DNA of 64,000 nt from an uncultured Phycisphaerales bacterium (GCA_963785635.1 CAWAWB010000015.1:1-64000); one strand, 5' to 3'; positions 3,838 through 56,267 are shown, counted from the first letter of the stretch. Translations and numbers: made by a program. Notes: generated by a model from the sequence alone, not told the origin.

Positions 3838-3910
3838 TACCTGTGCCCTGTGCCCTGTTCCCTGTAGCCTTTTTCCTGTACCCTGTGCCCTGATCCCTGT
3901 AACCTTTTTC
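3838..3910. repeat. tandem CCTGTNN heptamer array (about 8 units, arranged as 2 x about 36 bp) in the tig/nfeD divergent region
   Basis: Sequence cctgtgccctgtgccctgttccctgtagcctttttcctgtaccctgtgccctgatccctgtaacctttttcc. Confidence 0.8.
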
Positions 3911-3926
3911 CTAAGGCAGGTGAACA

Positions 3927-4571
3927 ATGGCGACCGTTCTTACGTGGTGGGGTCAATTGTCGGGCGTGAATCAGGCTTTTTACGCCGCCGCAATTTTCTT
4001 CAGCGTGTTTTTCGTGTGGCAGCTCATCTCGGCGCTGCTGGGTCTGGCGGGCGATCACGGAATCGCCGCGCATGATCTTGCCGGCGGCCACGATTTTGAT
4101 GCCCACGCCGAATCCACCTTGCACCACGAGGCCCCGCACGACGCCCACGACACCGTCCTGGCCTTCAGGCTCGTCAGCCTCCGCTCGGTGCTGGCCTTTT
4201 TGACGTTGTTTGCCTGGGCCACCGCCCTGTATATGAACAGCGGTCTGCCCCTCCACCGCAGCCTGTCCTTTGCCGCGCTGTGGGGCCTGGCCGCCATGAT
4301 CCTGGTGAGCCTGCTTGTGCACTGGCTTTCCAAACTCGGCGAAACCGGCAATATCCGCGTGGAAACCTGCATCGGCGCCACCGGCACGGTGTACCTGGAC
4401 ATCCCCGAGAAAGGCCCGGGTGAGATTCGAGTCATGTGTTCGGGCGTGTTAACCCATCTAAAAGCAGTCAGCGTCTCCGGACCCTTGAAGGCCGGCGCGG
4501 CCGTGCGCGTCATCCGCATCACCGGCCCCAATACCGTCGAAGTTCAGCAGTCCCAATCAGCGAATGCGTAG
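3927..4571 (+). CDS. NfeD-like membrane protein (flotillin-associated), with a His-rich loop
   Basis: Two or three TM helices and a C-terminal OB-fold-like segment. Directly precedes the flotillin gene, the classic nfeD-floT operon arrangement. His-rich stretch: AAHDLAGGHDFDAHAESTLHHEAPHDAHD. Confidence 0.65.
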   Translation: MATVLTWWGQLSGVNQAFYAAAIFFSVFFVWQLISALLGLAGDHGIAAHDLAGGHDFDAHAESTLHHEAPHDAHDTVLAFRLVSLRSVLAFLTLFAWATALYMNSGLPLHRSLSFAALWGLAAMILVSLLVHWLSKLGETGNIRVETCIGATGTVYLDIPEKGPGEIRVMCSGVLTHLKAVSVSGPLKAGAAVRVIRITGPNTVEVQQSQSANA

Positions 4572-4595
4572 TCGCCCCTTTAGTGAGGAGAAGTC

Positions 4596-6168
4596 ATGTT
4601 TACTCTTGGCCTAACCGATAGCCCCGCCCTGCCGGCGGACACCATCACCATCTTTCTGGCGCTGGGCATCATCTTCATCCTGTTCGTGCTGCTGGTTTCG
4701 TTTTTGAGGCGGTACAAGCGCTGCCCCTCCAACAAGATCCTGGTCATCTACGGCAAGACCGGCTGCGGGCGCCTCCAAGTGCGTGCACGGCGGCGCGGCC
4801 TTCGTCTGGCCGCTGTTCCAGGCGTACGACTACCTGGACCTGGAGCCCTTCGTCATCCCCATCGACCTGTCCAACGCCCTCTCGCAGGAGAACATCCGCG
4901 TGTCGGTGCCCACCACGGTCACCGCGGCCATCTCCAACCAGAAGGGCATCATGGAAAACGCGGCCATCCGCCTGCTGGGCCTGACCACCCAGCAGATCCA
5001 GACGCAGGCGCAGGACATCATCATCGGCCAGATGCGCGCGGTCATCGCCACCATGAAGATCGAGGACATCAACCGCGACCGCCAGTCGTTCATGGGCAAG
5101 GTGAACGAGGCCGTGGCCGTCGAGCTGGAGAAGATCGGCCTGGCCGTCATCAACGTCAACATCCGCGACATCGAGGATGAGTCGGGCTACATCAAGGCCA
5201 TCGGCCGCAAGGCCGCCGCGGAGGCCATCAACCAGGCCAACATCGACGTGGCCGAGCAGGAAAAGAGCGGCCAGACCGGCGTGGCCCAGCGTAACCGCGA
5301 TCAGCGCGTTGCCGTGGCCGCCGCCATCGCCGATGCGGAAATCGGCGAGGCCACCGCCGCGCGGAACAAGCGCCAGCAGGTGGCCAAGCTGGATGCCGAG
5401 GCCGTCAACGCCGAAACCGCGGCCAATGCCCAGAAGGCGGCCTACCGCGCCAACCAGAAAGTGGCCGAGGAAGAGGCCCGCAACAAGGGCGAATCGGCCG
5501 CCAAGCAGGCCGATGGCTCCATTCGCGTGGCGCAGGAGCAGGCGCAGAAGAACGCCGAGGACGCCCGCGCCATCCGCGAGACCTCGCGCCTGAACGCCGA
5601 GATCGTCGTGCCCGCCGAGGCGGAGAAGAAGCGCATCATCATCGCCGCCGAGGCCCAGAAGGAGCAGACCATCAAGGTGGCCGAGGGCCAGAGGCAGCAG
5701 TCCATCGAGGTCGCCCAGGGCCAGGCCCAGGCCATGCTGGCCAAGATGACCGCCGAGGGCCAGGGCACGCAGGCCGTGCTGGATGGCAAGGCCACCGGCT
5801 ACCGCAACCTGGTGCAGTCGGCGGGCGACCCGCAGACGGCCACGGCCCTGCTCTTGATCGAAAAACTGCTGGAGATCTCCAACATCCAGGCCAAGGCGAT
5901 TTCCGAACTGCCCATCGAGAAGATCATCATCTGGGATGGCGGCGGCAACGGCGATGGCGGCGGCCTGTCCACGCTGGGCAAGCGCATCATGGGCGCACTG
6001 CCCCCCATGCACGAACTGGCCCGCCAGGTGGGCCTCGACCTGCCGGAGTTTTTGGGCAAGGTGGGTAAAGGCACGGAAGGCGGCCTGGGCGGTGCGGGTC
6101 CAAAGGATGGAAAGACGCCTCCCGCCGCGCCGGATGGACCGGCGAATAAGGTGATGCCGGTGAAGTGA
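4596..6168 (+). CDS. flotillin (SPFH/band-7 family, FloT/YqiK-like), reading frame interrupted near 4765-4785
   Basis: N-terminal TM anchor plus RRYKRCPSNKILVIYGKTG (frame of 4596). GGAAFVWPLF... and a long Ala/Glu/Lys-rich flotillin coiled coil (frame of 4783). The two frames join at a C-rich run. Confidence 0.8.
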
Positions 6169-6208
6169 GGCTCACGGGTCACGGCTTACGACTGGGCTGT
6201 GCTTTTTA

Positions 6209-6264
6209 CCCCTCCCCCTTTTACGGGGGAGGGTGGCCCGAAGGGCCGGGTGAGGGTTCTTCGG
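6209..6264 (+). repeat. 55-bp double-hairpin repeat element, copy 1 of 3
   Basis: Sequence cccctcccccttttacgggggagggtggcccgaagggccgggtgagggttctt. Near-identical copies at 41611-41667 (+) and 49304-49357 (reverse complement). Confidence 0.85.
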
Positions 6265-6370
6265 TCGCATGCCCTGACGTCGCGTTCTTCTGCGATGTGC
6301 AGGCGTGAAATAAAGGAACAGCTGAGGCTTACAGCTTAAGGCTTAAGAAATGCGTCCAAAACTGATTGAC

Positions 6371-6769
6371 CTACCGGCCGGAAGTATTCTCGCGTTCGCG
6401 AATAGCTTCAGCAATCTCACGAAACTCCATTGGAACCATCGTGTGTGCTCTTACATACCATTCGCAAACATCAAGCCACTGAGAGTTTTGGTAAAACGCC
6501 AGAACAATTGGTTTAATCCCTTGGTAAGAGATATCAAACCTGTCTTTTAGCTTCTCTTCGAAAAGGCCGAAATCTGGCGTAATGTGCTTGTTCAATTGAT
6601 TGCTAACTTCCTCGAAAATATCGTGCGCATCATTTAAATCATTTTCGCCCCAGTTCATCTCGGTAACTAAAGCAGCTATTGGATTTTCGTCAGAGTCAAT
6701 CGCCTCACCCAGCAAACGAACTTGAAATTGTAGTTTTTCGATTTCGCCTTCTAAGTCTCTATCGCTCAT
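6371..6769 (-). CDS. hypothetical acidic protein (132 aa) in a low-GC islet
   Basis: Clean ORF with AT-rich codon usage distinct from its surroundings. 13-bp spacing from the upstream gene. No recognisable motifs. Confidence 0.5.
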   Translation of the reverse strand: MSDRDLEGEIEKLQFQVRLLGEAIDSDENPIAALVTEMNWGENDLNDAHDIFEEVSNQLNKHITPDFGLFEEKLKDRFDISYQGIKPIVLAFYQNSQWLDVCEWYVRAHTMVPMEFREIAEAIRERENTSGR

Positions 6770-6782
6770 AAATCGTCCTCGA

Positions 6783-7232
6783 CTATAAGTGAAGCCTCAG
6801 GTGAACCCTGGATTTTGCCGTGGAGATACCTTCCTGGATCATTGTCCTCATCTTTGAAATGATCTCAGGATGATCTGTGTCTGATTGCCCCAATTCCGAA
6901 ACTAGGCCTTGCACGGCTGAGACCATGGCTCTTATGTCTCTATCGGGGCCATCTGAAGACAACCTGTTCAGAACACCATCAAGATGCCTCTGAATTTCGC
7001 TTAATGAGCTTCCTATCTTAAATCCTCTCCGATTCGACCGAATAGCATTTTCTAAAGCATTCAATTCACTTTGCAAATGAGTAAGTGACTGTTCAATGTC
7101 AGATAAAGTTATTTGTCTAAAATCAAGTTCAACAGCTTTCTTGACCCTAAAGGCTTTAAAAGCAGCCAAAACTGAAACAAGAGCGCCGACGATTGAAGCG
7201 AAATCAGCAATGTCAGTTATTATTGAGGACAT
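6783..7232 (-). CDS. hypothetical membrane-anchored coiled-coil protein (149 aa) in a low-GC islet
   Basis: N-terminal TM helix (IITDIADFASIVGALVSVLAAFKAF) followed by predicted coiled coil. Forms an operon with 6371..6769. Confidence 0.5.
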   Translation of the reverse strand: MSSIITDIADFASIVGALVSVLAAFKAFRVKKAVELDFRQITLSDIEQSLTHLQSELNALENAIRSNRRGFKIGSSLSEIQRHLDGVLNRLSSDGPDRDIRAMVSAVQGLVSELGQSDTDHPEIISKMRTMIQEGISTAKSRVHLRLHL

Positions 7233-7417: not shown

Positions 7418-7615
7418 TCAGGCCCGAAGGGCCGGCAGTTGGTAGCCGGCGGCGTAAGCCGCCGGACCGGGCCGTTTTTTTGGAAAAGCCCCGAAGGGGC
7501 GGCAGAATCATGGAAATCCGCAAGAATCTGTCGCCCCGTTGGGGCTCTAAACAGTTTAGCGACCATACCGGGGGCTGACGCCCCCGGCTACCAACTGTCG
7601 CCCCATTCGGGGCTT
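7418..7615 (+). repeat. cluster of six GC-rich short hairpins (REP/BIME-like), with a 12-bp long-range helix enclosing four of them
   Basis: Hairpins ggcccGAAGggcc, ccggcggcGTAAgccgccgg (+T7), gccccGAAGgggc, cgccccGTTGgggc, ccgggggcTGACgcccccgg and gccccATTCggggc. cagttggtagcc (7436-7447) is the reverse complement of ggctaccaactg (7586-7597). Confidence 0.7.
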
Positions 7616-8159
7616 ATCATGCTTGCACGAAGTGGCCGACGTCCCCATTAATTCCCATTCCTGCAGTCACGTGAGCCGAAGGCTCGCGCCATCAAATCAA
7701 TTCTGTTCTGCGCCTTTCCTCTTTCCTCTGGACCTTTGTCCCGGTGCCGTGGCTGCAACCCCTCTCCCTTGGGAGAGGGCTTGTCCTGCGAAGCTTCAGC
7801 GGAGCGGGATGCCCCGAAGGGGCGGGCTTGCCCTGCGAAGCTTTAGCGAAGCAGGGTGAGGGTTTTCCAGCAGCCACGTCTCTGGCATCGTCATATATAA
7901 GTGCCTGTCTGATAGGCTATTATGATCGACTCCTACCACAACACATTTTTCCTGCCATTTTCTGCATTTTACACCTTTACAGAATCTGGCTAACCATGTA
8001 TCATAATACTTGTCATGGTAATGCAGATTCCAATGTGGAGGATCAGAAAGAGGGATACGGAAAATTCCAGCCCCGAACCATTCCCAGAATCGCGCGGCGG
8101 AGAACCTTTGCCTTTGCGGCCGCGCAAACACTCGAGTGAACCGGGATCGCCAAAGGGCT

Positions 8160-9500
8160 GTTTACATAGATCGAAGGAATTGCGGATTGCGGATTGCGGA
8201 TTGAAGAGAGACCTGATTGGGGCGGCGCCGACTCGAATCGGCCGGCCCGCCAGCAAAGTTTCTCGAATCAAATCCACAATCCTGAACTCCCGATCCGCTA
8301 CTGGTTTTGCCTATTCCGTGTTCGCCTGTACGTTGTGACTGTGCATATGCTGTCCCTTCTTCCAATTGCGGGGTCTGTACTCTTTGCAATCCGCAATTGG
8401 AAATGTCCGTTCCATGTTCACCCCGTAACCTTGTTCCGTCTGCCGTCCCCGCTTTCGTTGTTTCAGCTCCTTTCGGCATTCTTACGGAATTGCGGCGCTG
8501 CGGTTGTGCGCGGGCTGAGAGTCTTCTCAATCCGCAATCCGAAATCCGCAATCCGCAATTCTTCACCGGCTGTTTGGACGCATGGGGTTCGCAGAGCGCT
8601 TCAGCCGATTCCAGACTTGGCTGAAACCGCCGCGTTTCCGACTCCCGCGCGAGATGGTGGAGTTTGTACTTTTTTCTTCCGCCTGCTGCATGCAGGCACT
8701 TCGGTGTGCAGCTTCCTGCCTGACAGAGGCCGGGCAGGGCGAGCGGCTGCACATCTGGTCGCCTCGGCTTCAGATGTGAGAGCCCGCACGCAAGACCGGA
8801 GGGCGTTGGCATCATCCGTTTCGGCCGCTGGTGCAGGAGAAGTGAATCCGCCGCAGGGTTCATCGGTCCGCTCGTCAAACACCGTAACTGGTCCCTTTCG
8901 AGACGGCGGTGAGCGCCCCATCCGCACGATGACAGGCAACCGCATCATCACCCAAATGATGAGCAATTGCCCCATCTGCATGATGACCGGCAGCCCTGGG
9001 ACGGTGATTCCTGCGACCGGCCGCCGTTGCCTTGAGGCGTTCGCCACGGCGCACGCGCTTGAAGCGCAATTACGGATGCTGACCCATGCCTGGCGTCACC
9101 ATAGGACCGTGGAAATGAGAAAGCCCGCCACATCCACGGGGAATTGCGGATTGCGGATTTCGGATTGCGGATTGGAGCTGCCTGAGGCTGCATCACGTTC
9201 GCTCATCGAACCTAGGTGCTGCTGTCTTACAGTTCAGCCGCAAGCCGCCAATCCAAAATCTGCAATTCCAGAGGGTCGTAGATTGCGAATTGCCAGTCGC
9301 GGATCTGAACAACTTGAGATATCTCGTTCGCTCATCGAACGTGCATCGAGTCCTCTTGCTGTTCAATCCGCAATCCGAAATCCGCAATCCGCAATTCCTC
9401 TGACCGGCGTTGCGGGGAGACCTGTTTCCTCGAACGGGCGAGTTGTTGCGCATGACCGAACGTCGACCGCGCCACGGGCGTTCCAGCCTTATTCGCGGCG
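8160..9500. repeat. non-coding block dense in GGATTGC/GCAATCC heptamer arrays arranged as inverted pairs
   Basis: Forward arrays at about 8178, 8484, 9141 and 9280. Reverse arrays at about 8383, 8524, 9247 and 9362. Two adjacent units share the palindromic core cgttcgctcatcgaac. No credible ORF; the 514-aa ORF through this block translates the repeats. Confidence 0.8.
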
Positions 9501-9982
9501 GCCCGCGGCCATGAAACTGGTTAACCATTCCCCAGAACCCCATGCGAAATCCCTAGTCCAGACGGCGCGTGTGGATCAACGCGCCCGCTGGCATACCGTC
9601 CGCCCCGCGGCGACGCTACGGATAGCGCCGCCCCGGCGCGGCGGAGTTATTCTCGAAAAATTAGCCACGGAGGACACAGGAAAAGAAAAGAGAGGACACA
9701 GAGAACTGACAATTGACAAGGTACAAATGACAAATTGATCTAATCTACAATTGACAATTCAGGGATATGTGTCCTGCTCCTCCCCCGGGTGCTGCGGCCG
9801 TCCGCGGCCGTGCGCGCGATATTCAGGAAAACACAAGGTTCACCGGAAGCCAGGGAAACCTTCATCTACTTTGTTTTTTGCACACAGCACGGCCGCCCGC
9901 GGCCGTGGCGCCCTCGCATTATTAGTACCCTCCCATCATTATTCCACCCTCCCATCATTACGATCTCCCATCTTGCCGTTTC

Positions 9983-11569: not shown

Positions 11570-11639
11570 AGTTCACTAGGCGAAACCTCTCTAGCCCCAA
11601 CGCCTTGCGGGCCGATAGCAGTTAGGAAAGGTTCGCATC

Positions 11640-14592: not shown

Positions 14593-14593
14593 G

Positions 14594-14745
14594 AAATCCT
14601 AAATTCGAAATCCGAAATCCTAAACAATAAGACACAAAACTCGAATAAGAACAAAAGAACAGACAGGTAACGACATTTGCTCCGGGTTTGGGATTTTGAA
14701 ATTGTTTCGGATTTAGAATTTAGGATTTCGGATTTTTCGATTTTG
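14594..14745. terminator. long imperfect hairpin built from inverted heptamer arrays (AAATCCT/AAATCCG units and complements); putative bidirectional terminator between hom and apgM
   Basis: Left arm aaatcctaaattcgaaatccgaaatcctaaac. Right arm ...cggatttagaatttaggatttcggatttttcgattttg. Confidence 0.55.
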
Positions 14746-16142: not shown

Positions 16143-16172
16143 TTGTGTTAATAAGAATAGCTACTGATACTA
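16143..16172 (+). promoter_or_regulatory. candidate sigma70-like promoter (TTGTGT - 17 bp - GATACT) in an AT-rich patch
   Basis: Sequence inspection only. Would start a roughly 180-nt transcript ending at the terminator at 16306-16362. Confidence 0.3.
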
Positions 16173-16305
16173 GTCTACAAGCGGCGCGTCTTATGAGCGC
16201 GGCTATGAAGCCGCGTCGTGAAAAACCCGATACGCTCGTGCAGCGGCATAATTGGGGCCGGATTTTCCGGTCCCGCCTTGTCGGACAGGATTAAGGCCTG
16301 TCAGT

Positions 16306-16362: not shown

Positions 16363-16376
16363 AGGCTGCATAGCGG

Positions 16377-19460: not shown

Positions 19461-19684
19461 CTACTCATTGCGGATTGCGGATTGCGAATTGCGGATTGCT
19501 TTGGACAGAGACTTTGCTTTATCTATTCCGCCATCCGCGCAACCCATCGAGTTAATCGTTCAGCCCTTGATGCCCGCTTCAATTTCAATGGAGGATTGAG
19601 AAGGCAAAATAGCATCGGCTTGGCGTCCCTTATGCGGAACGTGGTTGGGAGCGAAATCCGCAATCCGCAATCCGCAATCCGAAA

Positions 19685-22038
19685 TTATTTTCCCGCCGTC
19701 ACGCCCTCCACCTCGCGAATCACGGCGATGAGCGATTCGGAGCTGCCGGACTTGGTGAGATAGGCGCTGGCGCCGGCGCTCAGCATGGCGGCCGCGCGGT
19801 CGGCCTGGTCGTACATGGACAGGCCGATGATGTGGATATCCGGCTGCTCGGCATGGATGACTTTGGTGGCCTCCACACCGTCCATAATGGGCATGCTGGC
19901 GTCCATGAGGATGACATCCGGGTGCAACCGCCGCGCCTGGTTGACTGCCTCCTGGCCGTCGCCAGCCTCGCCCAGGATCTCGATATCCGGCTCCTCCCGA
20001 AGCAGCGTGGCCAGGCCCTGCCGCATCACGGCGTGATCATCGGCCAGCAGCACGGAGATTTTTTCGCCGGCCACACGATGCGCGGCGATCAGTTCCTGCT
20101 TCTCGCCATCGGTCAAGCCGACCGCCGCCTTCAACGACGCCTCCGCCTTGGCCGAAAGGCGGCTGGGCGCGATCAACGTCACGCGCGTGCCCTTGCCGGG
20201 GGCGCTGTCGATATCCAGGCAACCGCCCAGGAGGAAGAGCCGCTCGCGAATGGAGAACAGGCCGAACCCGCCGGTGGCGGATTCCTGGTCGCCGGCGATC
20301 TGCTGGGCATCCCTGAAGCCTTTGCCCTCGTCGCTCACGACAATCTCCACATAATCTTCATCCACGCGCGACAACTTCACGGTCGCCTTGTCCACGCCGG
20401 CGTGTTTGACCACGTTGAAGAGCAGCTCGCGTATGGATTGGAACAACAGGATCTGGAGGTCCTTGCGCTCGAGCTGAATGTCTTCGACGATCTCCAGGTG
20501 TACGCTGAGGCCGTGCTTTTCCTGCATCCAGCGCGCCAGCCATTCCAGACCGGCGATCAGGCCGGCCTCCTTCAGGATCGCCGGGGAGAGGCTCGGCCGT
20601 CAACGCGCGGCAGGTCCTGATCGATTCCTCCGCCAGTCCCATGGCGCGCTCCAACTTGCCCCGCAGCGCATCGCTGGCCTGGCGGAGAGATACCTCCAGG
20701 CCGAACTTGATGCCTACCAGGAGCTGCTGGAGATGATCGTGCAGCACCTGCGCCAGCCGCTGCCGCTCGGCCTGTTCCACCATGGTCAGTTCGGAAGCCA
20801 GGCGGGAAAGCTGCGCGCACCCGGTGCTGAAGCTCGCACGTGCGCTCCTGAACGCGATCCTCCAGCTCATTGCGTGCCTTGACCAGGGCATCCTGGGCCT
20901 GCTTGTAGGCGGTGATGTCCCGGATGGCCGTAAAGCGTGTGGAGGAATCGTATGGAAAAGGCTTTCCGTGAGTCTCCACGTAAATCGCAGAGCCGTCCTT
21001 GCACAGCATGGGATGGTCCAGGTGGCTCTCCAGACCCCGAGAGATATTGTGCATGATGCGAGCGCGATCCGGCGGCCGAACAAACCGGGCGATCGGCTGG
21101 CCAATCAGTTCCTCGCGCCGATACTTTAACATTCCGGCCAGTTGGTCATTGATATCCACGTACTTTCCGTGATGGATGATGGCAATACCTTCAAATGTGG
21201 CCTCCGCCAGGCGGCGAAAGCGTTCCTCGCTGCGCTGCACGGCCTCCTGGGCCTGCTTGAGAGCGGTGATGCATTGGGCGGTGCCCGTCATGCGCACCGG
21301 CCTGCCGGAGTCATCGTAAATAGCCCGGCCGCAGGCTAAGATCCAGTGGATGCTCCCATCATCGTGCATGGCGCGGAATTCAACCGAATAATAAGCATGG
21401 CGATGAATCGCCTCTTCAACGCTGGTGCGAACCTTAGGCACATCCTCAGGATGCACCCGGCTGAAAAACACCTCGTAGGACTTGGGCGTATCTGTCGGAA
21501 GCCCCAGCAGGCGGCTGGCCTGATCACCCCATTTCAGATCATTGCCGACCAGGTCCCAGTCCCATGTCCCCACTTCAGCGGCCTCGGTCGTCAGCCGCAG
21601 CCTTTCCTCACTACTGGCCAGCGACTCCTGCGCGGCGGTCCGTTCGGCGAGTTCCCGGGCCATCTCATCGCGGTGGATTATGGCTTGCCGGCGCGCGGAG
21701 CGAATAATGTGCCCAAAAAGCACAATAAACGTAAACAACACGAAGTACGTGACAACCGAGATCGCATCACCGACATCGACAAAAGTCCAGGTGTAGCGAG
21801 GTATGTCAAAAAAATAATCGCCCACAAAATAACCGAGGATACCGGCCAGAATGGATGGTCCCAGACTGCCGAACCAGGCTACGGCGACTACAGCCATCAG
21901 GAACATAAACAACGGCGCGCGCGGACCCAGATACGGGTCCAGCAGCAACCTCACCACAAAAGCGATTGCAACTGCCGAAATGGCCGCAAGATACCCCCCC
22001 ACCAGTGCACAAGCTTTGGATTTGCGCATTACACCCAC
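19685..22038 (-). CDS. hybrid sensor kinase (DUF4118-like membrane N-terminus, 2 x PAS, HisKA_3 H-box, HATPase_c, C-terminal receiver), two frame interruptions near 20583-20595 and 20812-20825
   Basis: Three overlapping minus-strand ORFs join into one protein: ...ELEDRVQERT | SELTMVEQAERQRLAQVLHDHLQQ | ...LIAGLEWLARWMQEKHGLSVHLE...NVVKHAG... + REC (ISVLLADDHAVMRQGL...). Confidence 0.75.
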
Positions 22039-22085: not shown

Positions 22086-22238
22086 GGAATTTCAAAAGGC
22101 AAATTTCGAATTTCAAATTGGGCGTGGCCGAAGAATCGGATCCCTATTTGCAGAATTGAGCTTGATGTGGGTTGCATTGCAACAGGAGCTTCTGACATTG
22201 GTAAGCAAATTCAAAATCTGAGATTCGAAATTTGAAAT
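22086..22238. repeat. inverted pair of AATTTCA/AATTTCG heptamer arrays flanking a gttgcattgcaac palindrome
   Basis: Left gaatttcaaaaggcaaatttcgaatttcaaatt. Right gcaaattcaaaatctgagattcgaaatttgaaatc. Confidence 0.7.
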
Positions 22239-22257
22239 CAACAAAGGAAGGTCGTGC

Positions 22258-23631: not shown

Positions 23632-23785
23632 CGTGTTTGCCCTGCCGCCAGCCGTCCGGGTGAAAGAGACGCAACTCCTGTTGGCATCGTAACCTGTGCG
23701 AACCTACTCCTTCAAGTCCCCCATCTAAACGACCCAGGAGGACTGAAGGTTCCATTGAAAGGCCTTCTCCAGCCAACAAGCGGGG

Positions 23786-23877
23786 CACAAAGAGCACCAA
23801 GGACACCAAGAGCACGAAGAGTAATGAAAAAGCTTCTTTCTTGGTGCTCTTTGTGATCTTGGTGTGCTTGGTGTTAA
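23786..23877. repeat. inverted pair of CACCAAG-type heptamer arrays (same unit family as 29083-29162)
   Basis: Left cacaaagagcaccaaggacaccaagagcacgaagag. Right ctttcttggtgctctttgtgatcttggtgtgcttggtgtt. Confidence 0.75.
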
Positions 23878-24892: not shown

Positions 24893-24937
24893 GGGGCTTA
24901 CGGCTCACGGCTTAGGGCTTAGGCAGACCAAGAAACA

Positions 24938-25082
24938 GCGAATATCGAATGTCGAACACGGAATGTCGAATGTTGAAGTGAAGATTCGCCGTTGAGCCGC
25001 CCGCTGGAGGAAGGAGGCGCTCACCTCCGACTTCATCATTCGAAATTCCTTGTTCGATATTCGATATTTCCTTTCGATTCAA
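24938..25082. repeat. inverted pair of TGTCGAA/TATCGAA heptamer arrays
   Basis: Left gcgaatatcgaatgtcgaacacggaatgtcgaatgttgaag.... Right ...attcgaaattccttgttcgatattcgatatttcctttcgattc. Confidence 0.75.
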
Positions 25083-28931: not shown

Positions 28932-29082
28932 GTCTGGCTGATTTGACTTCGGACCCGGCGGCAGCCTTCATGTCCGAGATGTGCAGGACATGAAGACTGC
29001 CGTCGTTGTTTTTTTGGCATAGGACTTAGGGCTCAGGGTTTTGCAGCAAGGCCGGCTTTGCGCGGGCTAGCGCAAAAGTCAA

Positions 29083-29162
29083 AACACCAAGAACACCAAG
29101 CTCACCAAGAGCACCAAAAAGAGTATTTGGAATTGTTTAGTGTCCTTGGCGCTCTTGGTGAT
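29083..29162. repeat. inverted pair of CACCAAG-type arrays
   Basis: Left aacaccaagaacaccaagctcaccaagagcaccaaa. Right tagtgtccttggcgctcttggtgat. Confidence 0.75.
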
Positions 29163-29319
29163 TCAGAGCGTTTACCCCCAAGGCGCCGGTGTGTCGGCCT
29201 AAGCCCTAAGCCCGCAGCCCTAAGCCCTGCTTCCAATTCCGCTTTTCCCCTCCCGCGCTTACGGCTATAATCGCCGCTCTAACACCTTAACGATCCGCCC
29301 CTTTCAGGAGATTCGCGCC

Positions 29320-35334: not shown

Positions 35335-35482
35335 CAAATCCCAAATCCCAAAATCCAAATTCCAAACAAATTCCAAGCACCAAATTCCAAAGAAGAAAAG
35401 CCCTTCGCTTAGAGTCGATCTCTCCCCTTGGCGTTTGGAATTTGGAATTTGGAGTTTGTTTGCAGTTTGGTGCTTGGGATTT
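35335..35482. repeat. inverted pair of AAATCCCA/AAATTCCA arrays
   Basis: Left caaatcccaaatcccaaaatccaaattccaaac.... Right gcgtttggaatttggaatttggagtttgtttgcagtttggtgcttgggatttc. Confidence 0.75.
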
Positions 35483-36566: not shown

Positions 36567-37719
36567 CCGAGCAGATTACGTCCATGCCCGAAGCCGCGCC
36601 GCCGCACGAGGCCGCCCGCGCACCCGGCGACAAGGCGGAAAAACTCTACCGCGCCAGCCAGTGGCAATTGATGTGGCGCCGCCTCAAGAAGCACCGCCTG
36701 GCGATGGTCGCGATGGTGATCGTGGGATTTCTGTACGTGGTGGCGATCTTCGGCGAGGTCTTTGCCACGGGCCGACCGGAAAATACCAGCGAGCTGGCGC
36801 ACCTGCCGCCGCAGCAATTGCACTTTTTCGACCGGGGCCGGCTCTTCCCGCACGTTCAGGGCCTCTTGGCCCAGCGCGACCCCGAGACGCGGGAGTGGAT
36901 TTACGTTAACGACCCCGAGGTAAAAATTCCCGTCCACATCTTCGGCAAAGGTTTTGCCTACAAGCTTCTGGGCTTCATCCCGTGCAGCCGCCACATCCTG
37001 TGCGTTGAGCCGGGCCAAACGCGACAGGACATTTATCTTTTAGGCACGGACGACATCGGCCGCGACATGTGGAGCCGCCTGGTCTTCGCCACGCGCATCT
37101 CCATGTCCATCGGCCTGGTGGGCGTATCACTCAGCTTGATCCTGGGCATCACCATCGGCGGCATCTCGGGCCTGTACGGCGGCTGGGTGGATAGTCTCAT
37201 TCAGCGTGTGATCGAGCTTATCCGCTCCATCCCCACCATTCCCCTGTGGATGGGCCTGGCCGCGGCGGTTCCCAAGGGCTGGTCGGTTTTGCAGGTGTAC
37301 TTCACGATCACGATTATCATCTCGCTTTTGGGCTGGACGCAGCTGGCCCGCGTGGTCCGCGGCAAGTTCCTCTCGCTGCGCGAGGAGGATTTCGTCACCG
37401 CCGCGCGGCTGATGGGCTCCGGGCCCATGCGGATCATCTTCCGCCACCTGGTGCCCAACTTCATCAGCCACATCATCGCCGCCACCACGCTGGCGATTCC
37501 GGGCATGATCTTAAGCGAGACGGCGCTGAGCTTCCTGGGCCTGGGGCTTCGCCCGCCGGCCATCAGTTGGGGCGTGCTGCTCCAGCGGCGCAGAACATCC
37601 AGACCATCGCCCAGTACCCCTGGCTGCTGATCCCGGCCATCGCGGTCATCGCGGCGGTGCTGGCGTTCAACTTTTTAGGGGATGGCCTGCGGGATGCGGC
37701 CGACCCATATTCACGGTGA
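36563..37719 (+). CDS. ABC transporter permease (OppC/DppC-like), frame interrupted near 37575-37590
   Basis: N-terminal OppC-type extension plus BPD_transp_1. Joined at WGVLLQ|[18 protein letters not shown]...[15 protein letters not shown]. Confidence 0.8.
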
Positions 37720-37844
37720 TTGCGGATTGCGGATTTCGTATTTCGGATTGAAAGAGAATCAGTCGCCTCATTCCGTTGAAACGTCGATGAATTATTGGCT
37801 ACCCTGTTTGCGGTGATAGTGCAGGGCAAATCGAGGAACACATT

Positions 37845-38497: not shown

Positions 38498-38625
38498 GGC
38501 TGTAGGCTGTAGGCTGTAGGCTGTAGGCTGTAGGCTGTAGGCTGTAGGCACAACCGGAATACTACCGGTCGTCCCTTTTCCAGCCGTTCCTACAGTCTAC
38601 AGACTACAGTCTACAGTCTACAGCC
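38498..38625. repeat. inverted octamer arrays: (GGCTGTAG) x 6.5 on the left, (CTACAGTC)-type x 4.5 on the right
   Basis: Read directly from the sequence. The right-arm units differ from the exact complement by one position per unit; on the plus-strand RNA these would be G-U wobble pairs. Confidence 0.85.
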
Positions 38626-39342
38626 TCTTCCGCCGCAAAACCGCCGCCGCGCCCACTGCCATGAGCGCCAGTGTGGCCGGCTCGGCGCGTAGGGAGTCTG
38701 CGAGAAGACAAAACTCGCCGGCGCGGCGGCTCCAGGAGTTGCATCGATCACCAGATCGCCGGTGCCGAATCCGGGCATGAACACATCATTCGCCGCAACG
38801 GCGCCGCCAAGTGCCTGAAGCTTCTGCGTGTTTACCCAGTTGACCTGAGTGAAGGGGTCGATGGAAAAACCGTTGACGCCGCCGGCGTTGGTCAACGTCT
38901 CGTTGAACTGCACGCCGGTTCCCGTGAGGGACCACTCGAATTCGTGCCAGTCTGAGCCGGTGAAGTTGTTGATGGTCTCATCCTCGATGATCAATCGCGG
39001 GGCCGTGGCGGAGGCCGTGCCGATCTGCGTAAAGGTCAGATCAATGGGCCCATCGGAGTGAAAGTCCTTCATGATTTCCAGCGCGATGAACTTCTGCCCG
39101 TCGCTGCTGGTCCCCGTGCCATCCTCCACCACACCCAAGTTGGCCGTGGGGTCGGAGCAGGAAACCTGCCAGCCCGCATCCGGAAAGGAGAACGTTGTTA
39201 CTGGCGGGACCGGTGTGAAGGCGGCGGCGCGAAGTGCGCACAAACTTAACGTGAAAATGAATAGCGATATCCACCGTAGACCCATTGAGCATCCTCCGTT
39301 TTTCCTCGCTACTGTAAGTTGAGCAATGAGCGGCAGTAGCAA
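38611..39342 (-). CDS. secreted protein with a PEP-CTERM sorting tail, frame interrupted near 38670-38676 (1-bp loss in CCGG)
   Basis: Signal peptide. After the shift the tail reads ...SFVFSQTPYAPEPATLALMAVGAAAVLRRKRL* (PEP motif, TM segment, basic end). True stop near 38618. Confidence 0.6.
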   Translation of the reverse strand: MLLPLIAQLTVARKNGGCSMGLRWISLFIFTLSLCALRAAAFTPVPPVTTFSFPDAGWQVSCSDPTANLGVVEDGTGTSSDGQKFIALEIMKDFHSDGPIDLTFTQIGTASATAPRLIIEDETINNFTGSDWHEFEWSLTGTGVQFNETLTNAGGVNGFSIDPFTQVNWVNTQKLQALGGAVAANDVFMPGFGTGDLVIDATPGAAAPASFVFSQTPYAPSRPHWRSWQWARRRFCGGRGCRL

Positions 39343-39608
39343 GCAAAAAGCATTACGTCAGCAGGGCCGGGAAAAGCAATTGTGCCTCCAGGTCCAAATA
39401 CCTTGCCGGGACCATGCTGAGCAAAAACAATTACAGCGAGCATCATAAGCTTAAGGCAAAGTTGAAATCCTGTCAATGCGGATTCTGGGGTCGGGCCGGC
39501 CTGTAATCAAAAAAAATGAGCAGGGATGCAGGGATACAAGGGATAAGAAGTAAATGGCAAGAGTGCACCCATCCGAGATGCTTTTTCTACAGCCTACAGT
39601 CTACAGCC

Positions 39609-40286
39609 TCAATCTTCGCAGCATAGCCTTCCATCGCGCAATCGCATCGTCCTTGCCGCCTTCGCCGCTACGGCCGCATCATGGGTCGTAAAGACCACCG
39701 TAGTGCCCTCGGCGCGATTCAGTTGGATGACCAGATCGAGCAGCGCGGCCGCGTGGGCGGAGTCGAGCGAACTGGTCGGTTCATCCATCAACACCAGTTG
39801 TGGACTGTGGGCTACCGCCCGCAGGATAGCCACCTGCTGGCGCTGACCGTTGGACAGCGCATCCGGATAAGATTTTGCCCTGCTCAATAGTCCCGCCTGA
39901 CCGAGCAGATGGTTCACCCGCTCGGTCCTCTGCGCGGCGGATAGCCCGTTAACCACCAAAGGCAATTCGATATTCTGCCAGGTGGTCATCGTCGGCAAGA
40001 GGTCCAGGCTCTGGAACACAAAGCCGATATTGGCGCTGCGCAGGCGGGTTTTGGCCGATTCTTTCAGGCTTCCCAGTTCCTGCCCCAACAGATTAATGCT
40101 GCCGGCAGTCGGCGAGCACAGCCCCGCTGCCAGGTTTAAAAGCGTCGTCTTGCCGCTGCCCGAAGCGCCCACGATGGAAACCAGTTCGCCGCCGGCAATG
40201 GACAGGCTCACATCGCTCAGCGCCGTACACGCCGCGGCACCGCTGCCGTACGTCAACGTCACGTTCTGGAACTCGATGGCCATCAC
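39609..40286 (-). CDS. ABC transporter ATP-binding protein (MacB/LolD/FtsE-type)
   Basis: Walker A GASGSGKTT, signature LSNGQRQQ, Walker B LVLMDEPTSSLD. Confidence 0.9.
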   Translation of the reverse strand: MMAIEFQNVTLTYGSGAAACTALSDVSLSIAGGELVSIVGASGSGKTTLLNLAAGLCSPTAGSINLLGQELGSLKESAKTRLRSANIGFVFQSLDLLPTMTTWQNIELPLVVNGLSAAQRTERVNHLLGQAGLLSRAKSYPDALSNGQRQQVAILRAVAHSPQLVLMDEPTSSLDSAHAAALLDLVIQLNRAEGTTVVFTTHDAAVAAKAARTMRLRDGRLCCED

Positions 40287-41440: not shown

Positions 41441-41610
41441 AAGGGCGAGAATCTCAGACAGTCACTCCCAATGAAGTTTCAATGCTCATGAGGTGCAATT
41501 CTAACATGCTGGATCACGGAGAGAAACGACCTGCACAGCAGGCTTGGGGCCTGAGACTTGAGGCCTTCGGCTTGGGGCTTGAGAAAACACTGGGAGGGTG
41601 CCACGGCCAA

Positions 41611-45989: not shown

Positions 45990-46345
45990 ACGCGGCATTG
46001 TGGAGCAATTGGCCGGCCATTGCAACGGGTGGCACAGGCTTTCCAGCCTGTGATTCTGCCCACAGCCTTGAAAAGGCTGCTCCACCAGTTTTCGTCACAC
46101 AATCTGGAAAGGCCGTGCCACGGAACGGCCTTGCCGAAAGCCTCCAACCGGTGTAAGCTGCACGGGTTAACGTTATGCGGATGGACGGCCGCGCGGCGTC
46201 TCAGGTCGGCGGCCAAGCACCGGACATTGTTTTCGGGTAACATATTTTCCGGGCCGAGTCTGTGGGCCCTGGGCACGGTCAGGTGGCACAGGCTTTCAAG
46301 CCTGTGGCAGAATCACAGGCTGAAAAGCCTGTGCCACCCTAACGG
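45990..46345 (+). promoter_or_regulatory. ino1 upstream leader with two copies of a double-hairpin module (GGCACAGGC-N6-GCCTGTG...CACAGGC-N6-GCCTGTGCC)
   Basis: Copy 1 at 46020-46075, copy 2 at 46283-46340. The outer arms are reverse complements. Confidence 0.4.
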
Positions 46346-46355
46346 GGTAACCAGA

Positions 46356-47722: not shown

Positions 47723-47797
47723 TCTTTGTAGTTTGTAGTTTGTAGTTTGCAGTTTGTAGTTTGTAGTTTGAAGTTTGTAGTTTGAAGTTTGAAATTT
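47723..47797 (+). repeat. direct tandem array (TTTGTAG) x about 10 immediately upstream of the HAD hydrolase gene
   Basis: Sequence ctttgtagtttgtagtttgtagtttgcagtttgtagtttgtagtttgaagtttgtagtttgaagtttgaaatttc. Confidence 0.9.
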
Positions 47798-48503: not shown

Positions 48504-48534
48504 ATGAAGGGAATTAAGTGCTCCGTCCCCGAAA

Positions 48535-49134: not shown

Positions 49135-49303
49135 AATTGTATGTGCTCCACATAAAGAAAAGACTTCTTGGGTGCCACGGCTGCGTCGTTTGCAGCCGTG
49201 CGCCGTGCGAACACTGGAGCAGAAGGTCTTGGAAGGAAACTGAACTAACCTTCATTCCAATCCCGTTGAACCTTCATCTCATTAGACTGTCTTGCGCACG
49301 GGT

Positions 49304-49357
49304 GCAAGAACCCTCACCCGGCCCTTCGGGCCACCCTCTCCCGTAAAAGGGAGAGGG
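49304..49357 (-). repeat. 55-bp double-hairpin repeat element, copy 3 of 3 (reverse complement), directly downstream of the E1 gene
   Basis: Sequence caagaaccctcacccggcccttcgggccaccctctcccgtaaaagggagagggg. Confidence 0.85.
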
Positions 49358-49390
49358 GTTGCACCTGCGGCACCTTCACAATACTTAGTC

Positions 49391-51862: not shown

Positions 51863-51954
51863 GACTACAACTCCTCATTTCGATTGCGGATTGCGATTGC
51901 GGATTGACTCAACTCAGTGAAGGTTCAATCAGCCATCGCAACGTGCAACCTGGT

Positions 51955-54606: not shown

Positions 54607-54654
54607 TATGCTCTGTTGCCGTGACGTTTGCGGCCGCGACTAGATGGGAATCAC

Positions 54655-56077
54655 ATGAGCAAGAACCATTTCAATATCGTGCTGCTCGGCTCGGCCCGGG
54701 CGGCTACATCGCGGCCATCAAGGCGGCGCATCTTGGCGCATCCGTGGCCGTGGTGGAAAAGGCGCAACTGGGCGGCACCTGCCTCAATAACGGCTGCATT
54801 CCCTCCAAGGCGCTCCTGGCCTCGGCGGCGATGATGCACGAGATCGGCGAGGCGGGCAAGCTCGGCATCAAGGTTGCGGGTGAAGTCATCTGCGACTGGA
54901 CGGCCGTGCAGCAGCGCAAGGACCGCACGCTGGCCCGCCTGCGGCAGGGCATCGCCAATCTCTTCAAGGGCGGCAACATCGAGCTTTTCCAGGGCACGGG
55001 CAAGCTGGATGGCCCGGGGCGAATCGCCGTGATGGACGCCAAAGGCCAGACGCAGATTATCACCGCCGACAAAATCGTGCTGGCCACGGGCTCGGTGCCT
55101 TCGCGGATCCCCGGCTGGCCGACCGATCCGGCGCTGGTGTGCACCTCGGATGAGGCGCTGCACTGGAAGGACCTGCCTGGGCGCCTTTTGATCGTTGGCG
55201 GCGGCGTCATCGGCTGCGAATTCGCGTGCATGATGCAGGCCGTAGGCGTAAAGGTGACGGTAGTGGAAATGATGCCGCGACTTTTGCCGGAGATGGATAG
55301 CGACCTGTCCGCCGAGCTAACCAAGGTCTTTAAAGCGCGGCAGATCGCCTGCCACGTGGGTACGAAGGTTGCGGATCTCTCTATCGCGGATGGCCGCGTG
55401 AAAGCGCGGCTGGATAATGGCCAGACGATCGACGCCGACCGCGTGCTGGTGGCCACGGGCCGCCGCGCGGCCACGCAGGATATTGGCCTGGAAAGCGTGG
55501 GACTCACAACCGACCGCGGCTTTATCCGCGTGAATGACCGGATGGAAACCGCCGTCAATTGCATCTATTGCATCGGCGACGCCAACGGCCGCATTCTGCT
55601 GGCCCACGCGGCCAGGCGCAGGGCGAAGTCGCCGTGGCCAATGCGCTCGGCGCAAATCGAATCTTCGATGCCCCGGTGCCGCTGACCGTGTACACGTTCC
55701 CGGAGATTGCCGGCGTGGGCCTGACCGAAGAGCAGGCGGACAAGCGGAACATTCCCATCTCCGTGGGCGCGTTCCCCATCGGCTACCTGGGCAAGGCCAT
55801 GGCGGTGGGACACGGCGAGGGCATGATCAAGGTCATCCGCGACCACTCCAATGATGCGCTCTTAGGCGTACACATGTTCGGCCACAACGTGACGGAGGTA
55901 ATTGCCTGCACCACGGCCATGCTGGGCGAAAAGGCCACGGTGACTGAACTTGCCGAGACGATCTTCGCCCACCCGACCATCTCCGAGGCGGTCAAGGAGG
56001 CCGCCGAGGATTCCTTTGGCCAGGCCATCCACCTGCCGCCGAAGAAGGTGGTTTCAGTCATGGCGGGAGTCGTTTAA
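54655..56077 (+). CDS. lpdA: dihydrolipoamide dehydrogenase (E3), two frame interruptions near 54697 and 55612 (1-bp losses)
   Basis: FAD-binding MSKNHFNIVLLGSG|PGGYIAAIKAA, redox-active GGTCLNNGCIPSK, NAD-binding region, and dimerisation domain in the third ORF (...AHPTISEAVKEAAE). Confidence 0.85.
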
Positions 56078-56094
56078 TTTGCCCCAAATGAAGA

Positions 56095-56267
56095 GGAACA
56101 CAAAGACCACAAAGGTCACAAAGAACACAAAGGTCACAAAGAACACAAAGAAAGAAAACTCAGAGTAAAAGCCAGACCAAGACACGGGCTCTTCTTTTCT
56201 TTTGACATTGGATTTATTCTTTCTTCGTGTCCTTTGTGTTCTTTGTGACCTTTGTGTTGCTCTTTGT
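56095..56267. repeat. inverted pair of CACAAAG-type heptamer arrays between lpdA and the dehydrogenase gene
   Basis: Left gaacacaaagaccacaaaggtcacaaagaacacaaaggtcacaaagaacacaaag. Right tcttcgtgtcctttgtgttctttgtgacctttgtgttgctctttgtt. Confidence 0.85.

Follow-up and report, generated by a model that had tools for sequence, protein, structure and literature searches.

We analysed a 64,000-nucleotide stretch of DNA from an uncultured Phycisphaerales bacterium (GCA_963785635.1, CAWAWB010000015.1:1-64000), hereafter the window, and observed that the spacers between its genes hold short tandem arrays of 7-nt motifs, often arranged as inverted pairs. One such element has an arm of ~32-38 nt made of 4-5 tandem 7-nt motifs, usually followed by a variable spacer and then by the inverted arm, and the motifs within an arm either abut directly or are spaced to 8-9 nt. 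The elements fall into families that are common to several loci, to related genomes and, in the case of the unit ATTGCGG, to different phyla and phage-like contigs. Genes of the window were mapped by codon-position GC and Pfam. The closest genome match to the window is a Phycisphaerales metagenome-assembled genome (MAG), with a hom gene that is 87% identical, and the named relatives of another window protein are Phycisphaerae/Planctomycetota.

Heptamer arrays between the genes of the window

Tandem arrays were called with Tandem Repeats Finder (TRF) over the whole window, which returned 83 rows in total, and the chance level was taken from 30 dinucleotide-preserving shuffles of the window. We find 31 rows of period 7 compared to 1.7 in the shuffles, an excess of ~18-fold, and 13 rows of period 9 compared to 2.0. 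The AT-richer arrays of periods 7 and 9 all lie outside coding sequence, between genes, and the intergenic, gene-end placement given in a preliminary description of this DNA holds. Rows that appear to lie within genes are of two kinds, namely weak GC-rich coding repeats (5529, 5713, 13165, 19228 and 54120) and over-long open reading frame (ORF) calls (3840 and 56221). Both arrays of the second kind are upstream of real starts, the one at 3840 of the trigger-factor start and the one at 56221 of the ATG at 56283.

In total, 11-12 of the window arrays build inverted pairs that fold as 30-50-bp hairpins. The partners include 14593/14705, 19467/19652, 22088/22209 (the weakest), 23785/23838, 24939/25030, 29083/29140, 35335/35434, 38498/38590 and 56086/56213. 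Folded with ViennaRNA, the pairs form long imperfect hairpins of -39 to -133 kcal/mol (-146 for 8177-8561), with z-scores against shuffles ranging from -2.5 (22084-22240, the weakest) to -13 (9135-9403). The preliminary description had reported such hairpins, a set of array coordinates, inverted partners at most of these, and two tandem-only arrays; we recover a real array at each coordinate, a partner at every locus described as paired, long imperfect folds across the z-score range just given, and indeed solo arrays at 3840-3900 and 47725-47791. The list of loci itself proved incomplete, having missed 8177-8561, 9140-9398, 24894, 29021/29195, 37718, 39587 and 51877.

The same description held that each locus uses a different unit, which is not what we observe. 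ATTGCGG, together with its frequent variant ATTTCGG, accounts for eight arrays at five window loci. A large pair of this family (8177..8561; left arm 8177-8209, right arm 8522-8561, loop ~312 nt) has a minimum free energy (MFE) of -146 and a z-score of -4.9, and within its loop lies a small inner ATTGCGG inverted repeat at 8363-8400. At 9140..9398 the arms (9140-9174 / 9364-9398) are complementary at 35/35 positions around a loop of 189 nt, and the entire length forms one long hairpin (MFE -133, z -13). A third pair lies between convergent genes at 19467..19685 (arms 19467-19499 / 19652-19685; z -8.4), and its right arm runs up to the stop codon (19685-19687) of the hybrid kinase gene, which is on the minus strand. 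An identical 33-35-mer, including the position of the variant unit, is common to the arms at 8528, 9143 and 9364. The ATTGCGG spacers between arms in the window (157, 189 and 312 nt) are unrelated in sequence and length. The remaining two loci of this family are a solo GATTGCG array on the plus strand at 37718..37750 (4.7 units), the first bases of which overlap the oppC stop codon (TGA, 37717-37719) and which reads ATTGCGG on the sense strand, and a minus-strand GATTGCG array at 51877..51906 (3.7 units). The latter lies 15 nt upstream of where the E1 dehydrogenase gene starts, and the sequence 51907-51950 may hold its decayed partner.

The motif CAC[A/C]AAG occurs at three loci. The CACCAAG-type unit had been assigned to 23786 and 29083 only, but CAC[A/C]AAG at 9-nt spacing is also found at 56096, and the "9-mers" at 23785, 29083 and 56096 consist of the 7-nt motif CAC[A/C/G]AAG and two further bases that are free, and an arm usually has four of these motifs. 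The first NN-CAC[A/C/G]AAG pair (23785..23875; arms 23785-23821 / 23838-23875, four motifs each, loop 16 nt, z -6.9) is in a divergent intergenic region. The second is the inner NN-CACCAAG pair (29083-29117 / 29140-29164) of a nested element at 29021..29228, where it is enclosed by an outer GGGCTTA-type pair (29021-29054 / 29195-29228; z -6.9). The third is an NN-CACAAAG pair at 56086..56269, with 6 and 4 motifs, which fills the spacer from lpdA (stop 56077) to an ADH-like gene (ATG 56283) and folds with a z-score of -9.8.

Two further unit types recur. GGCTGTA is found as a pair at 38498..38626 (left arm 38498-38549 with 7.4 perfect units, right arm 38590-38626; MFE -87, z -10.3), 27 nt past the stop of gene 37845-38471, and as a solo minus-strand array of the family (CTACAGC) at 39587..39609, which adjoins the stop of the minus-strand ABC ATPase gene (39609-40286) and reads GGCTGTAG on the sense strand. 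GGCTTA-like units are found, besides 29021/29195, in a solo GGGCTTA-type array at 24894..24923 (plus strand, 4.3 units), directly past the intrinsic terminator at 24860-24886, and in two weak members on the plus strand, namely a short AGGCTTA array at 6325..6347 (3.3 units) and a degenerate GGCTTGR array at 41540..41583 (6.3 units, 64% matches).

Among the other elements, a GAAATCC/TAAATTC pair at 14593..14744 (arms 14593-14624 / 14705-14744) occupies the spacer between hom and apgM, beginning 1 nt past the hom stop codon and ending ~20 nt short of the apgM start. An AAATCCC/AAATTCC pair at 35335..35482 (arms 35335-35391 / 35434-35482; z -10.9) spans the interval from the second solute-binding-protein gene to oppB, and a CGAATGT/TCGAATA pair at 24939..25068 (arms 24941-24979 / 25030-25068, 90% complementary; z -6.8) lies upstream of lpxB. 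The weakest pair, AATTTCA/AATTTCG at 22088..22235 (arms 22088-22119 / 22209-22235; z -2.5/-3.2), is flanked by two minus-strand genes, and a relative of ~70% identity (L126) has the same unit family with the same chirality. The solo arrays include, on the plus strand, TTTGTAG at 47725..47791 (9.6 units; the HAD hydrolase start is 20 nt downstream) and CCCTGTN at 3840..3900 (8.7 units with a super-period of 35 nt, just upstream of the start of an NfeD-like gene at 3927). For a degenerate plus-strand TGACAAT array at 9707..9759 (7 units, 66% matches) a partner was not found.

Families, arm architecture and placement

We next turned to metagenome and viral contigs, in which (ATTGCGG)3 was found in at least 120 metagenome contigs of 40-73% GC; all metagenome family statistics below are those among the matches listed. 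Metagenome and viral carriers together span GC fractions of 0.39-0.73, and none of the contigs listed is a close relative of the window or carries its orthologous loci. One carrier, L036, which is Verrucomicrobial (Pedosphaera-like) by its arginyl-tRNA synthetase, has five pairs with five different units, and the single contigs L036 and L083 hold dozens of different units. CACAAAG shows a similar reach: the 76%-identical relative has CACAAAG pairs at three further spacers (tsf-pyrH, deoR-E1 and lpdA-ADH), with 4-motif arms conserved and loops unrelated, and the unrelated contig L083 carries it at 8-nt spacing with 4+4 motifs and the same chirality as in the window.

Viral counts are the IMG/VR stretches that match a heptamer three times in tandem, with three permutations of the seven bases of ATTGCGG as composition-matched controls. 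(ATTGCGG)3 matches 58 stretches compared to 5, 5 and 2 for the permutations, an excess of 10-30 times over permuted heptamers of equal composition; ATTGCGG is therefore a strongly preferred unit that is carried on phage-like DNA too. Other heptamers in IMG/VR are GGATTTC (22), GGCTGTA (8) and the Xanthomonas unit GGGAATC (3). In each of the IMG/VR contigs L161, L164 and L169, ATTGCGG arrays occur at 3-7 separate places, most of them solo and most just past the end of an ORF, and phages may carry the motif or make use of it independently. Additionally, ATTGCGG arrays stand at regular intervals and in the same orientation in L056 (1320-2036, every 342-343 nt), L055 (978-1454), L101 (866-1623) and L117 (2789-3406), which suggests that the array forms part of a longer tandem or coding repeat.

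The arms are highly regular. The length of ATTGCGG arms peaks sharply at 4.4-4.7 units (~32 nt; 74 of 172 metagenome arrays), with a mode of 4.6-4.7 units in viral contigs, and the other heptamers of the same contigs peak at 4.0-4.9 units (60 of 126); both peaks are above the TRF detection floor of ~3.1 units. The phase is fixed, with arms starting as (G)ATTGCGG and ending as GGATT(G). Partner-side counts show a strong chirality: 5'-(ATTGCGG)n-loop-(CCGCAAT)n-3' is found 59 times versus one opposite case, with 45 solo arrays, among metagenome arrays >520 nt from a contig end and 15 times versus two, with 63 solo arrays, in viral contigs, which sums to 74:3. Solo arrays thus make up 43% of the metagenome and 80% of the viral arrays. 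Other families are likewise consistent within themselves (AAAGAACAC 4:0, AGGCAGT 3:0 and five families 2:0), and across them the 5' arm is the purine-rich one in 30 of 37 informative metagenome pairs and 12 of 16 viral pairs (42:11). The loops of ATTGCGG pairs, by contrast with the arms, range from 0 to 405 nt, are unrelated in sequence even within one contig and occasionally hold a nested pair of another family.

The preliminary description had proposed mapping the arrays relative to gene 3' ends, and this revealed a close association. For the 46 long coding-like ORFs that end at most 60 nt upstream of the outer edge of an ATTGCGG array (with an overlap of up to 6 nt allowed), the stop codon lies -2 to +6 nt from that edge in 35. 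The stop codon sometimes overlaps the first bases of the array, as in T followed by GATTGCGG or TA followed by ATTGCGG. In metagenome contigs, (ATTGCGG)n begins at most 10 nt behind a stop codon in 27 cases, and (CCGCAAT)n in none; for solo arrays behind stops the polarity is 5:0. Read on the sense strand past the stop, the motif in the window is GAAATCC for hom, GATTGCG for oppC, ATTTCGG/ATTGCGG for the hybrid kinase gene, GGCTGTAG for both the ABC ATPase gene and gene 37845-38471, and CACAAAG for lpdA. Metagenome pairs lie between co-directional genes in 28 cases, convergent genes in 7 and divergent genes in 2, compared to a background of 167/32/32, with both sets of counts resting on crude gene calls; divergent spacers are thus under-used (2/37 versus 32/231). 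Three pairs of the window lie in operon contexts of the kind occupied by REP elements (discussed below), namely between a binding-protein gene and the oppB permease gene, between hom and apgM, and between lpdA and the ADH-like gene. Separately, an ATTGCGG pair in L097 (1532-1696) begins 9 nt past the 3' end of a tRNA gene.

Upon comparing orthologous spacers between the window and its relatives, namely L001 (hom 87% identical), L124 and L125 (two stretches of one ENA contig, ~76% amino-acid identity) and L126 (~70%), we observed that the elements rarely stay in place. Between hom and apgM, where the window has its GAAATCC pair, L001 has a 31-nt spacer from which the element is absent. The spacer between the second binding-protein gene and oppB, which holds the AAATCCC pair in the window, measures 23 nt in L124, and ino1 and the HAD gene, separated in the window by (TTTGTAG)9.6, abut in L124 (spacer 0 nt). 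After oppC, L124 has other palindromic repeats in place of the GATTGCG array. Between deoR and E1 the window has a GATTGCG array and L125 a CACAAAG pair. L124 carries an ATTGCAA pair between the mannitol dehydrogenase gene and ino1, where the window has a different palindromic repeat, and between the Ysc84 gene and the next gene the nested GGGCTTA/CACCAAG pairs of the window correspond to another palindrome in three copies in L124. The CACAAAG pair between lpdA and the ADH-like gene is found again in L125, with conserved arms, a different loop and 6.3 versus 4.3 units; in L126 the same spacer has an AATTTCA pair with a nested palindromic repeat. Across eight orthologous spacers, the element is absent from the relative in three, replaced by another kind in four and conserved in one. 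Positions therefore turn over fast and families persist within the lineage, and the question raised in the preliminary description, whether the unit at orthologous loci is conserved or turns over, is answered by conservation at one of eight spacers and by absence or replacement at the other seven.

Relation to known repeat classes

The nearest described parallel is the GGGAATC repeat of Xanthomonas (Rehm et al. 2015, PLoS One; PMC4692102), an intergenic heptamer of a high-GC genome with a preference for ~4 units. It forms 70-75 convergent (G-rich-first) inverted array pairs per genome, lies near ORF ends, is under-represented between divergent genes, is mostly transcribed without a function having been found, and differs in length and sequence between related species; its four-unit preference was ascribed to G-quadruplex formation (PMC4692102). 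The present elements resemble it in having intergenic arrays of ~4 heptamers, often in convergent inverted pairs, and in avoiding divergent spacers. They differ in that Xanthomonas has one quadruplex-type unit, whereas here there are at least ten unit families per genome, most of them unable to form quadruplexes; as read from the unit sequences, ATTGCGG, CACAAAG, GAAATCC, AATTTCA, TTTGTAG and GGCTGTA have no GGG, unlike GGGAATC. The architecture had initially been regarded as not belonging to a described class. For inverted pairs of ~4-unit heptamers as such this does not stand, given the Xanthomonas pairs (PMC4692102), from which the multi-family, non-quadruplex form differs. The features that are new beyond Xanthomonas are the abutment on stop codons, the purine-first order across families, the presence of ATTGCGG in different phyla and on phage-like contigs, and families that give way to one another at orthologous spacers.

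The likeness to the short tandemly repeated repetitive (STRR) sequences of cyanobacteria noted in the preliminary description is borne out as regards tandem intergenic heptamers in several unit families. The STRR1-3 units of heterocystous cyanobacteria are CCCCAGT, TTGGTCA and CAACAGT; none of these is among the TRF arrays of the window, and the host is Phycisphaerae-like rather than cyanobacterial. In the passage of PMC4692102 that cites them, the STRR sequences of Calothrix/Nostoc are mainly direct repeats, with "only a few" inverted pairs in Nostoc. The TAACTGA arrays of Beggiatoaceae, Microcystis and some Bacteroidetes lie upstream of start codons, with one inverted case in 170 sets, and a species may have such an array in a spacer that is shorter and array-free in its close relatives (PMC4679880). 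Both resemble the present elements in being intergenic tandem heptamers with several unit families per genome and a fixed orientation to the neighbouring ORF. They are, however, mainly direct repeats, and TAACTGA is found upstream of starts, whereas here inverted pairs are usual and the upstream stop codon is the anchor. A survey of prokaryotic satellites mentions heptamer-derived satellites and no such pairs (PMC6749651). In the open-access literature we found no report of arrays of this kind in Planctomycetes/Verrucomicrobia and no paper on a literal ATTGCGG repeat.

A second point of comparison is provided by dispersed palindromic elements. Repetitive extragenic palindromic (REP) sequences, bacterial interspersed mosaic elements (BIMEs) and REP doublets forming hairpins (REPINs) of Enterobacteria and Pseudomonas are ~35-nt extragenic repeats, often inverted doublets that form long hairpins, with several families per genome. 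REPs are found in 3' untranslated regions and between cistrons, classically between binding-protein and permease genes, and their presence or absence differs between relatives. The REP unit is an imperfect palindrome of 20-40 nt with a conserved 5' tetranucleotide and is tied to the gene of a REP-associated tyrosine transposase (RAYT, of the Y1 HUH type), which REPs typically flank, and REPIN spacers are conserved. In E. coli many REPs lie within 15 nt of a stop codon and affect translation and mRNA decay, as in malE-malF and hisJ-hisQ. These elements were reportedly treated by Stern (1984), Newbury (1987), Bertels and Rainey (2011) and Liang, Rudd and Deutscher (2015). The elements of the window are likewise extragenic, present in many copies and often inverted doublets that give a long hairpin. 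Unlike those of REPINs, their doublet loops range over 0-405 nt and are not conserved among copies, and strict REP identity was dropped given arms without self-structure, loops that are not conserved and no RAYT-like gene seen among the window genes or the top families of the 116 ORFs beside arrays. MITEs, the miniature transposable elements with inverted repeats, are similar in being small, non-coding, intergenic, insertion-polymorphic between relatives and sometimes nested, with inverted termini, but here the termini are arrays of a short motif and loops go down to 0 nt, and strict MITE identity was abandoned because there is no target-site duplication and no interior common to copies. The flank matches of 50 ATTGCGG pairs equal those of a shuffled-pair control. 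The earlier view that the arrays do not reduce to one REP/MITE family holds.

Other candidates were also set aside. A canonical intrinsic terminator does not match pairs that have no U-tract, often lie inside operons and in no case were called by the terminator scan, which returned one convincing site (24860-24886, canonical intrinsic), separate from the arrays. CRISPR repeats, integron attC sites, iterons and phase-variation simple sequence repeats were rejected, as the period is 7 nt and there are no constant-size spacers and no integrase or cassette array; moreover the arrays are outside coding and promoter -10/-35 spacing contexts and their neighbours are housekeeping genes. The pairs had no Rfam match at the gathering threshold, and permissive thresholds gave only sub-threshold matches to generic long hairpins (miRNA precursors).

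The window also contains repeats of other kinds. Acido-Lenti-1 RNA is matched twice with scores above the Rfam gathering threshold, at 7420-7465 (minus strand, 51.6 bits) and 7568-7614 (plus strand, 42.9 bits); the two matches are inverted, 102 nt apart, lie within a low-GC (~50%) stretch and are unrelated to the heptamer pairs. A dispersed family, CTCTCCC..GGGAGAGGGTGGCC(C/T)GAAGGGCCGGGTGAGGGTTCTT, is found at 6200-6262, 7745-7870, 41600-41670 and 49300-49360 and in L124 at 12280-12520, and forms GC-rich hairpins that resemble the Acido-Lenti-1 stem (GCCCGAAGGGC). The palindromic family GGGTGCCACGGCTGCG...GCAGCCGTGCGC occurs in the window at 41590-41610, 41740-41775, 49170-49210 and 7745-7760 and in L124 at 9545-9690 and 16160-16420; in this 76% relative it forms inverted pairs and fills the binding-protein-oppB spacer, which in the window is taken up by a heptamer pair. 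The divergent spacer between the mannitol dehydrogenase gene and ino1 holds a third palindromic repeat, GGCACAGGCTTTC(A/C)AGCCTGTGCC, at 46027-46060 and 46282-46339, and a similar repeat is tandemly duplicated in a Phycisphaerales MAG (L001, 10614-10681). A perfect 24-nt inverted repeat without tandem units (48445-48468 / 48511-48534, loop 42 nt) extends across the region where the HAD hydrolase and MarC genes converge, and its left arm falls within HAD coding sequence. On the minus strand, 10058-11452 codes for a DDE_5 (IS701-like) transposase (E 7e-64), with element ends near 9976-10010 and 11528-11573 and terminal inverted repeats (GGCGTTGTAGTG...) that hold tandem 8-mers (TTAACCGA/TTAATCGG); it is a real insertion sequence, with end motifs unrelated to the heptamer families. 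Two small minus-strand ORFs of 132 and 149 aa at 6371-7232, with weak DUF1878 and coiled-coil matches, lie in an island of 45-50% GC flanked by repeats, which is probably horizontally acquired DNA. Finally, at least eight window genes are split over two reading frames, namely apgM (14765-15975), MCP (17369-19403), the hybrid histidine kinase gene (19685-22038), lpxB (25124-26330), a solute-binding-protein gene (33263-35295), oppC (36275-37719), ino1 (about 46320-47563) and lpdA (54621-56077). They are intact in relatives, e.g. lpdA with 545 aa and ino1 with 402 aa in L124/L125, and the splits look like assembly indel errors rather than pseudogenes.

Possible origin and function

The reading that we favour, tentatively and at somewhat below even confidence, is that the elements constitute several REP/BIME-like families of extragenic repeats that are copied between loci, remodelled by slippage, and act as RNA stem-loops behind stop codons. 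Spread by copying is suggested by the shared phase, arm length and chirality, by the preference for ATTGCGG over its permutations and by the presence of the same families at non-orthologous sites of relatives. New copies would arise from an existing family member, by a route that leaves no target-site duplication, with de novo generation not being the main source, and spread between hosts may be aided by phages. Slippage would remodel each arm independently. The elements would be transcribed with the upstream gene, and where they are functionally relevant they would form RNA stem-loops just past the stop codon, which could block 3' exonucleases, mark sites where cistrons are processed or decoupled from each other, or terminate transcription leakily in a non-canonical manner, like the REPs of malE-malF and hisJ-hisQ. 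By analogy with REP/BIME elements, a role as RNA stem-loop at gene 3' ends and between cistrons appears the likeliest. That the purine- or G-rich arm takes the first place may reflect a selective filter that keeps the C- or pyrimidine-rich arm from naked exposure, for example to Rho; we propose that this arm would never be naked RNA because its partner has already been transcribed.

Several observations weigh against this account. Copies share no loops and carry no target-site duplications, no HUH/RAYT-like protein or other mobilising gene was found among the window genes, and the 116 ORFs beside ATTGCGG arrays show no transposase or RAYT enrichment in Pfam, with only housekeeping families and two PSD1 matches. 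Unlike REPs, the single arms are tandem heptamers without palindrome or self-structure; they fold at only -2.4 to -3.4 kcal/mol, with z ~0 in two of four and a 4-bp stem only in the others. With respect to the hairpin, sense and antisense folds of the pairs are equally stable, with no strand difference, and the NN spacers of the 9-mers pair poorly. The purine-first rule has 11 exceptions among 53 pairs, the stop-codon polarity is weaker in viral contigs (20/26 versus 6/20), and the closeness to stop codons is partly forced because the spacers of compact operons measure only 0-31 nt. A general purine-first constraint would fix the chirality of each unit, and thus chirality alone does not prove copying; it is conceivable that the elements arose de novo again and again, guided by a strong sequence preference. 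A protein that recognises the arrays would account for a conserved motif with variable spacing and a four-unit mode no less well than a generic hairpin does.

In the preliminary description, slippage plus templated inversion had been put forward as the source of a separate unit at each locus. In the full form of this proposal, replication slippage would make the array and intramolecular template switching (quasi-palindrome correction) would write the partner, leaving the units as by-products of the mutational habit of the lineage, which we consider unlikely. The slippage half of this proposal is borne out by the copy-number difference between the orthologous lpdA-ADH pairs and by L059 and L087, in which each arm of a pair has been homogenised to a different variant unit. 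The dozens of units within L036 and L083, the different units in the same orthologous spacer and the absence of target-site duplications and transposase association are also in keeping with an origin at each locus, as are loops that often continue the palindrome, nested pairs that suggest growth from the centre, and a purine-first constraint that could fix the chirality per unit without copying. Templated inversion, however, predicts that the arms of a pair match each other best, and the mismatch within pairs (0.105) equals that between loci (0.113; p=0.28), with no compensatory signal, a null result that also gives no sign of the arm co-evolution which would favour a selected hairpin. Origin at each locus is further contradicted by families with the same units, phase, arm length and chirality at many loci, at non-orthologous sites of relatives and in unrelated contigs across phyla, by the 10-30-fold excess of ATTGCGG over permuted heptamers, and by the sharp mode of 4-5 units, where slippage would be expected to give a decaying distribution. 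Recognition by a protein, with about four subunits or domains that each read one 7-nt motif and the hairpin being secondary, would account for this mode, which recurs in all families and in Xanthomonas with outer and inner phase fixed, and for the conservation of motif rather than pairing, the free NN spacers and the occurrence of CACAAAG at both 8- and 9-nt spacing. The strict polarity to the upstream gene, which extends to solo arrays (5:0), and the abundance of solo arrays point the same way. Since spacings of 7, 8 and 9 nt are tolerated, such binding would probably be on single-stranded RNA or DNA, and the candidates are OB-fold/cold-shock-type proteins, ring-shaped RNA-binding proteins, or a transposase or recombinase at element ends; the cold-shock protein CspB binds heptamer repeats with one protein per heptamer, as reviewed in PMC4679880. 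Nevertheless, at least ten motifs in one genome would need many specific factors or one very tolerant one, no candidate gene is linked to the arrays among the window genes or the ORFs beside arrays, an RNA-binding model leaves the inverted partner unexplained, and the transposon-end version meets no target-site duplications and no shared interiors. We regard a protein site as unlikely but as a serious rival to the hairpin reading.

Termination, one of the roles envisaged in the preliminary description, fails in its canonical sense, since the pairs have no U-tract, many are inside operons, and the textbook terminator at 24860-24886 adjoins arrays and lies outside them. The pairs could still be bidirectional, non-canonical 'I-shaped' hairpins without U-tracts directly behind genes: they start directly behind stop codons and a tRNA gene, are symmetric and so would work both ways, and show a slight excess between convergent genes and a deficit between divergent ones, and canonical terminators are rare in the window, with only one convincing site in 20 kb. 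We nonetheless find this improbable, as many pairs lie between linked or co-transcribed genes (binding protein-permease, hom-apgM, lpdA-ADH, tsf-pyrH) whose spacers in relatives measure 0-31 nt, a textbook terminator precedes the arrays at 24894, one pair (23785) lies in a divergent promoter region, loops reach up to 400 nt, and the pairs are not conserved at orthologous gene ends. Very improbable is a G-quadruplex or i-motif function, as proposed for Xanthomonas GGGAATC and Nostoc GGGGAYT, in which the four units would supply the four G-tracts of a quadruplex. The ~4-unit preference is as in Xanthomonas, and some metagenome families are rich in G-tracts (AGGGGGC, GGGGAGT), but ATTGCGG has only GG, and CACAAAG, GAAATCC, AATTTCA and TTTGTAG are without a G-run while having the same mode of 4-5 units. 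The four-unit rule is therefore not explained by quadruplexes, which weakens the quadruplex explanation for Xanthomonas too.

There is, lastly, a slim chance that the arrays are cis-sites of an undescribed system that spans phyla, with phages among its carriers, and thus the footprint of a specific machine rather than REP-like passengers. In one version, a factor would read about four tandem 7-nt motifs on single-stranded nucleic acid right behind stop codons; if true, the arrays would represent a novel type of signal that acts at 3' ends or is coupled to translation termination. In another, a templated process would write the repeats in a fixed polarity, for example by adding repeats to both 3' ends of a break that are then joined, which would give just the G-rich-first, head-to-head arrays around a variable centre that are observed.

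To our knowledge, heptamer repeats are over-represented in bacteria and have been assigned no function, and their inverted pairs have been studied in detail once, in Xanthomonas. The present elements extend the inverted heptamer-pair architecture to bacteria of the Planctomycetes-Verrucomicrobia-Chlamydiae (PVC) group and to many uncultured lineages, with motifs unable to form quadruplexes. In metagenome-assembled genomes, errors of assembly and annotation concentrate at such arrays, which could also be markers for strain typing. Overall, the regularities turn a vague repeat habit into a testable object, raising the questions of which protein or process keeps the count at four heptamers, what the polarity is for and by what means the elements move while leaving no target-site duplications.

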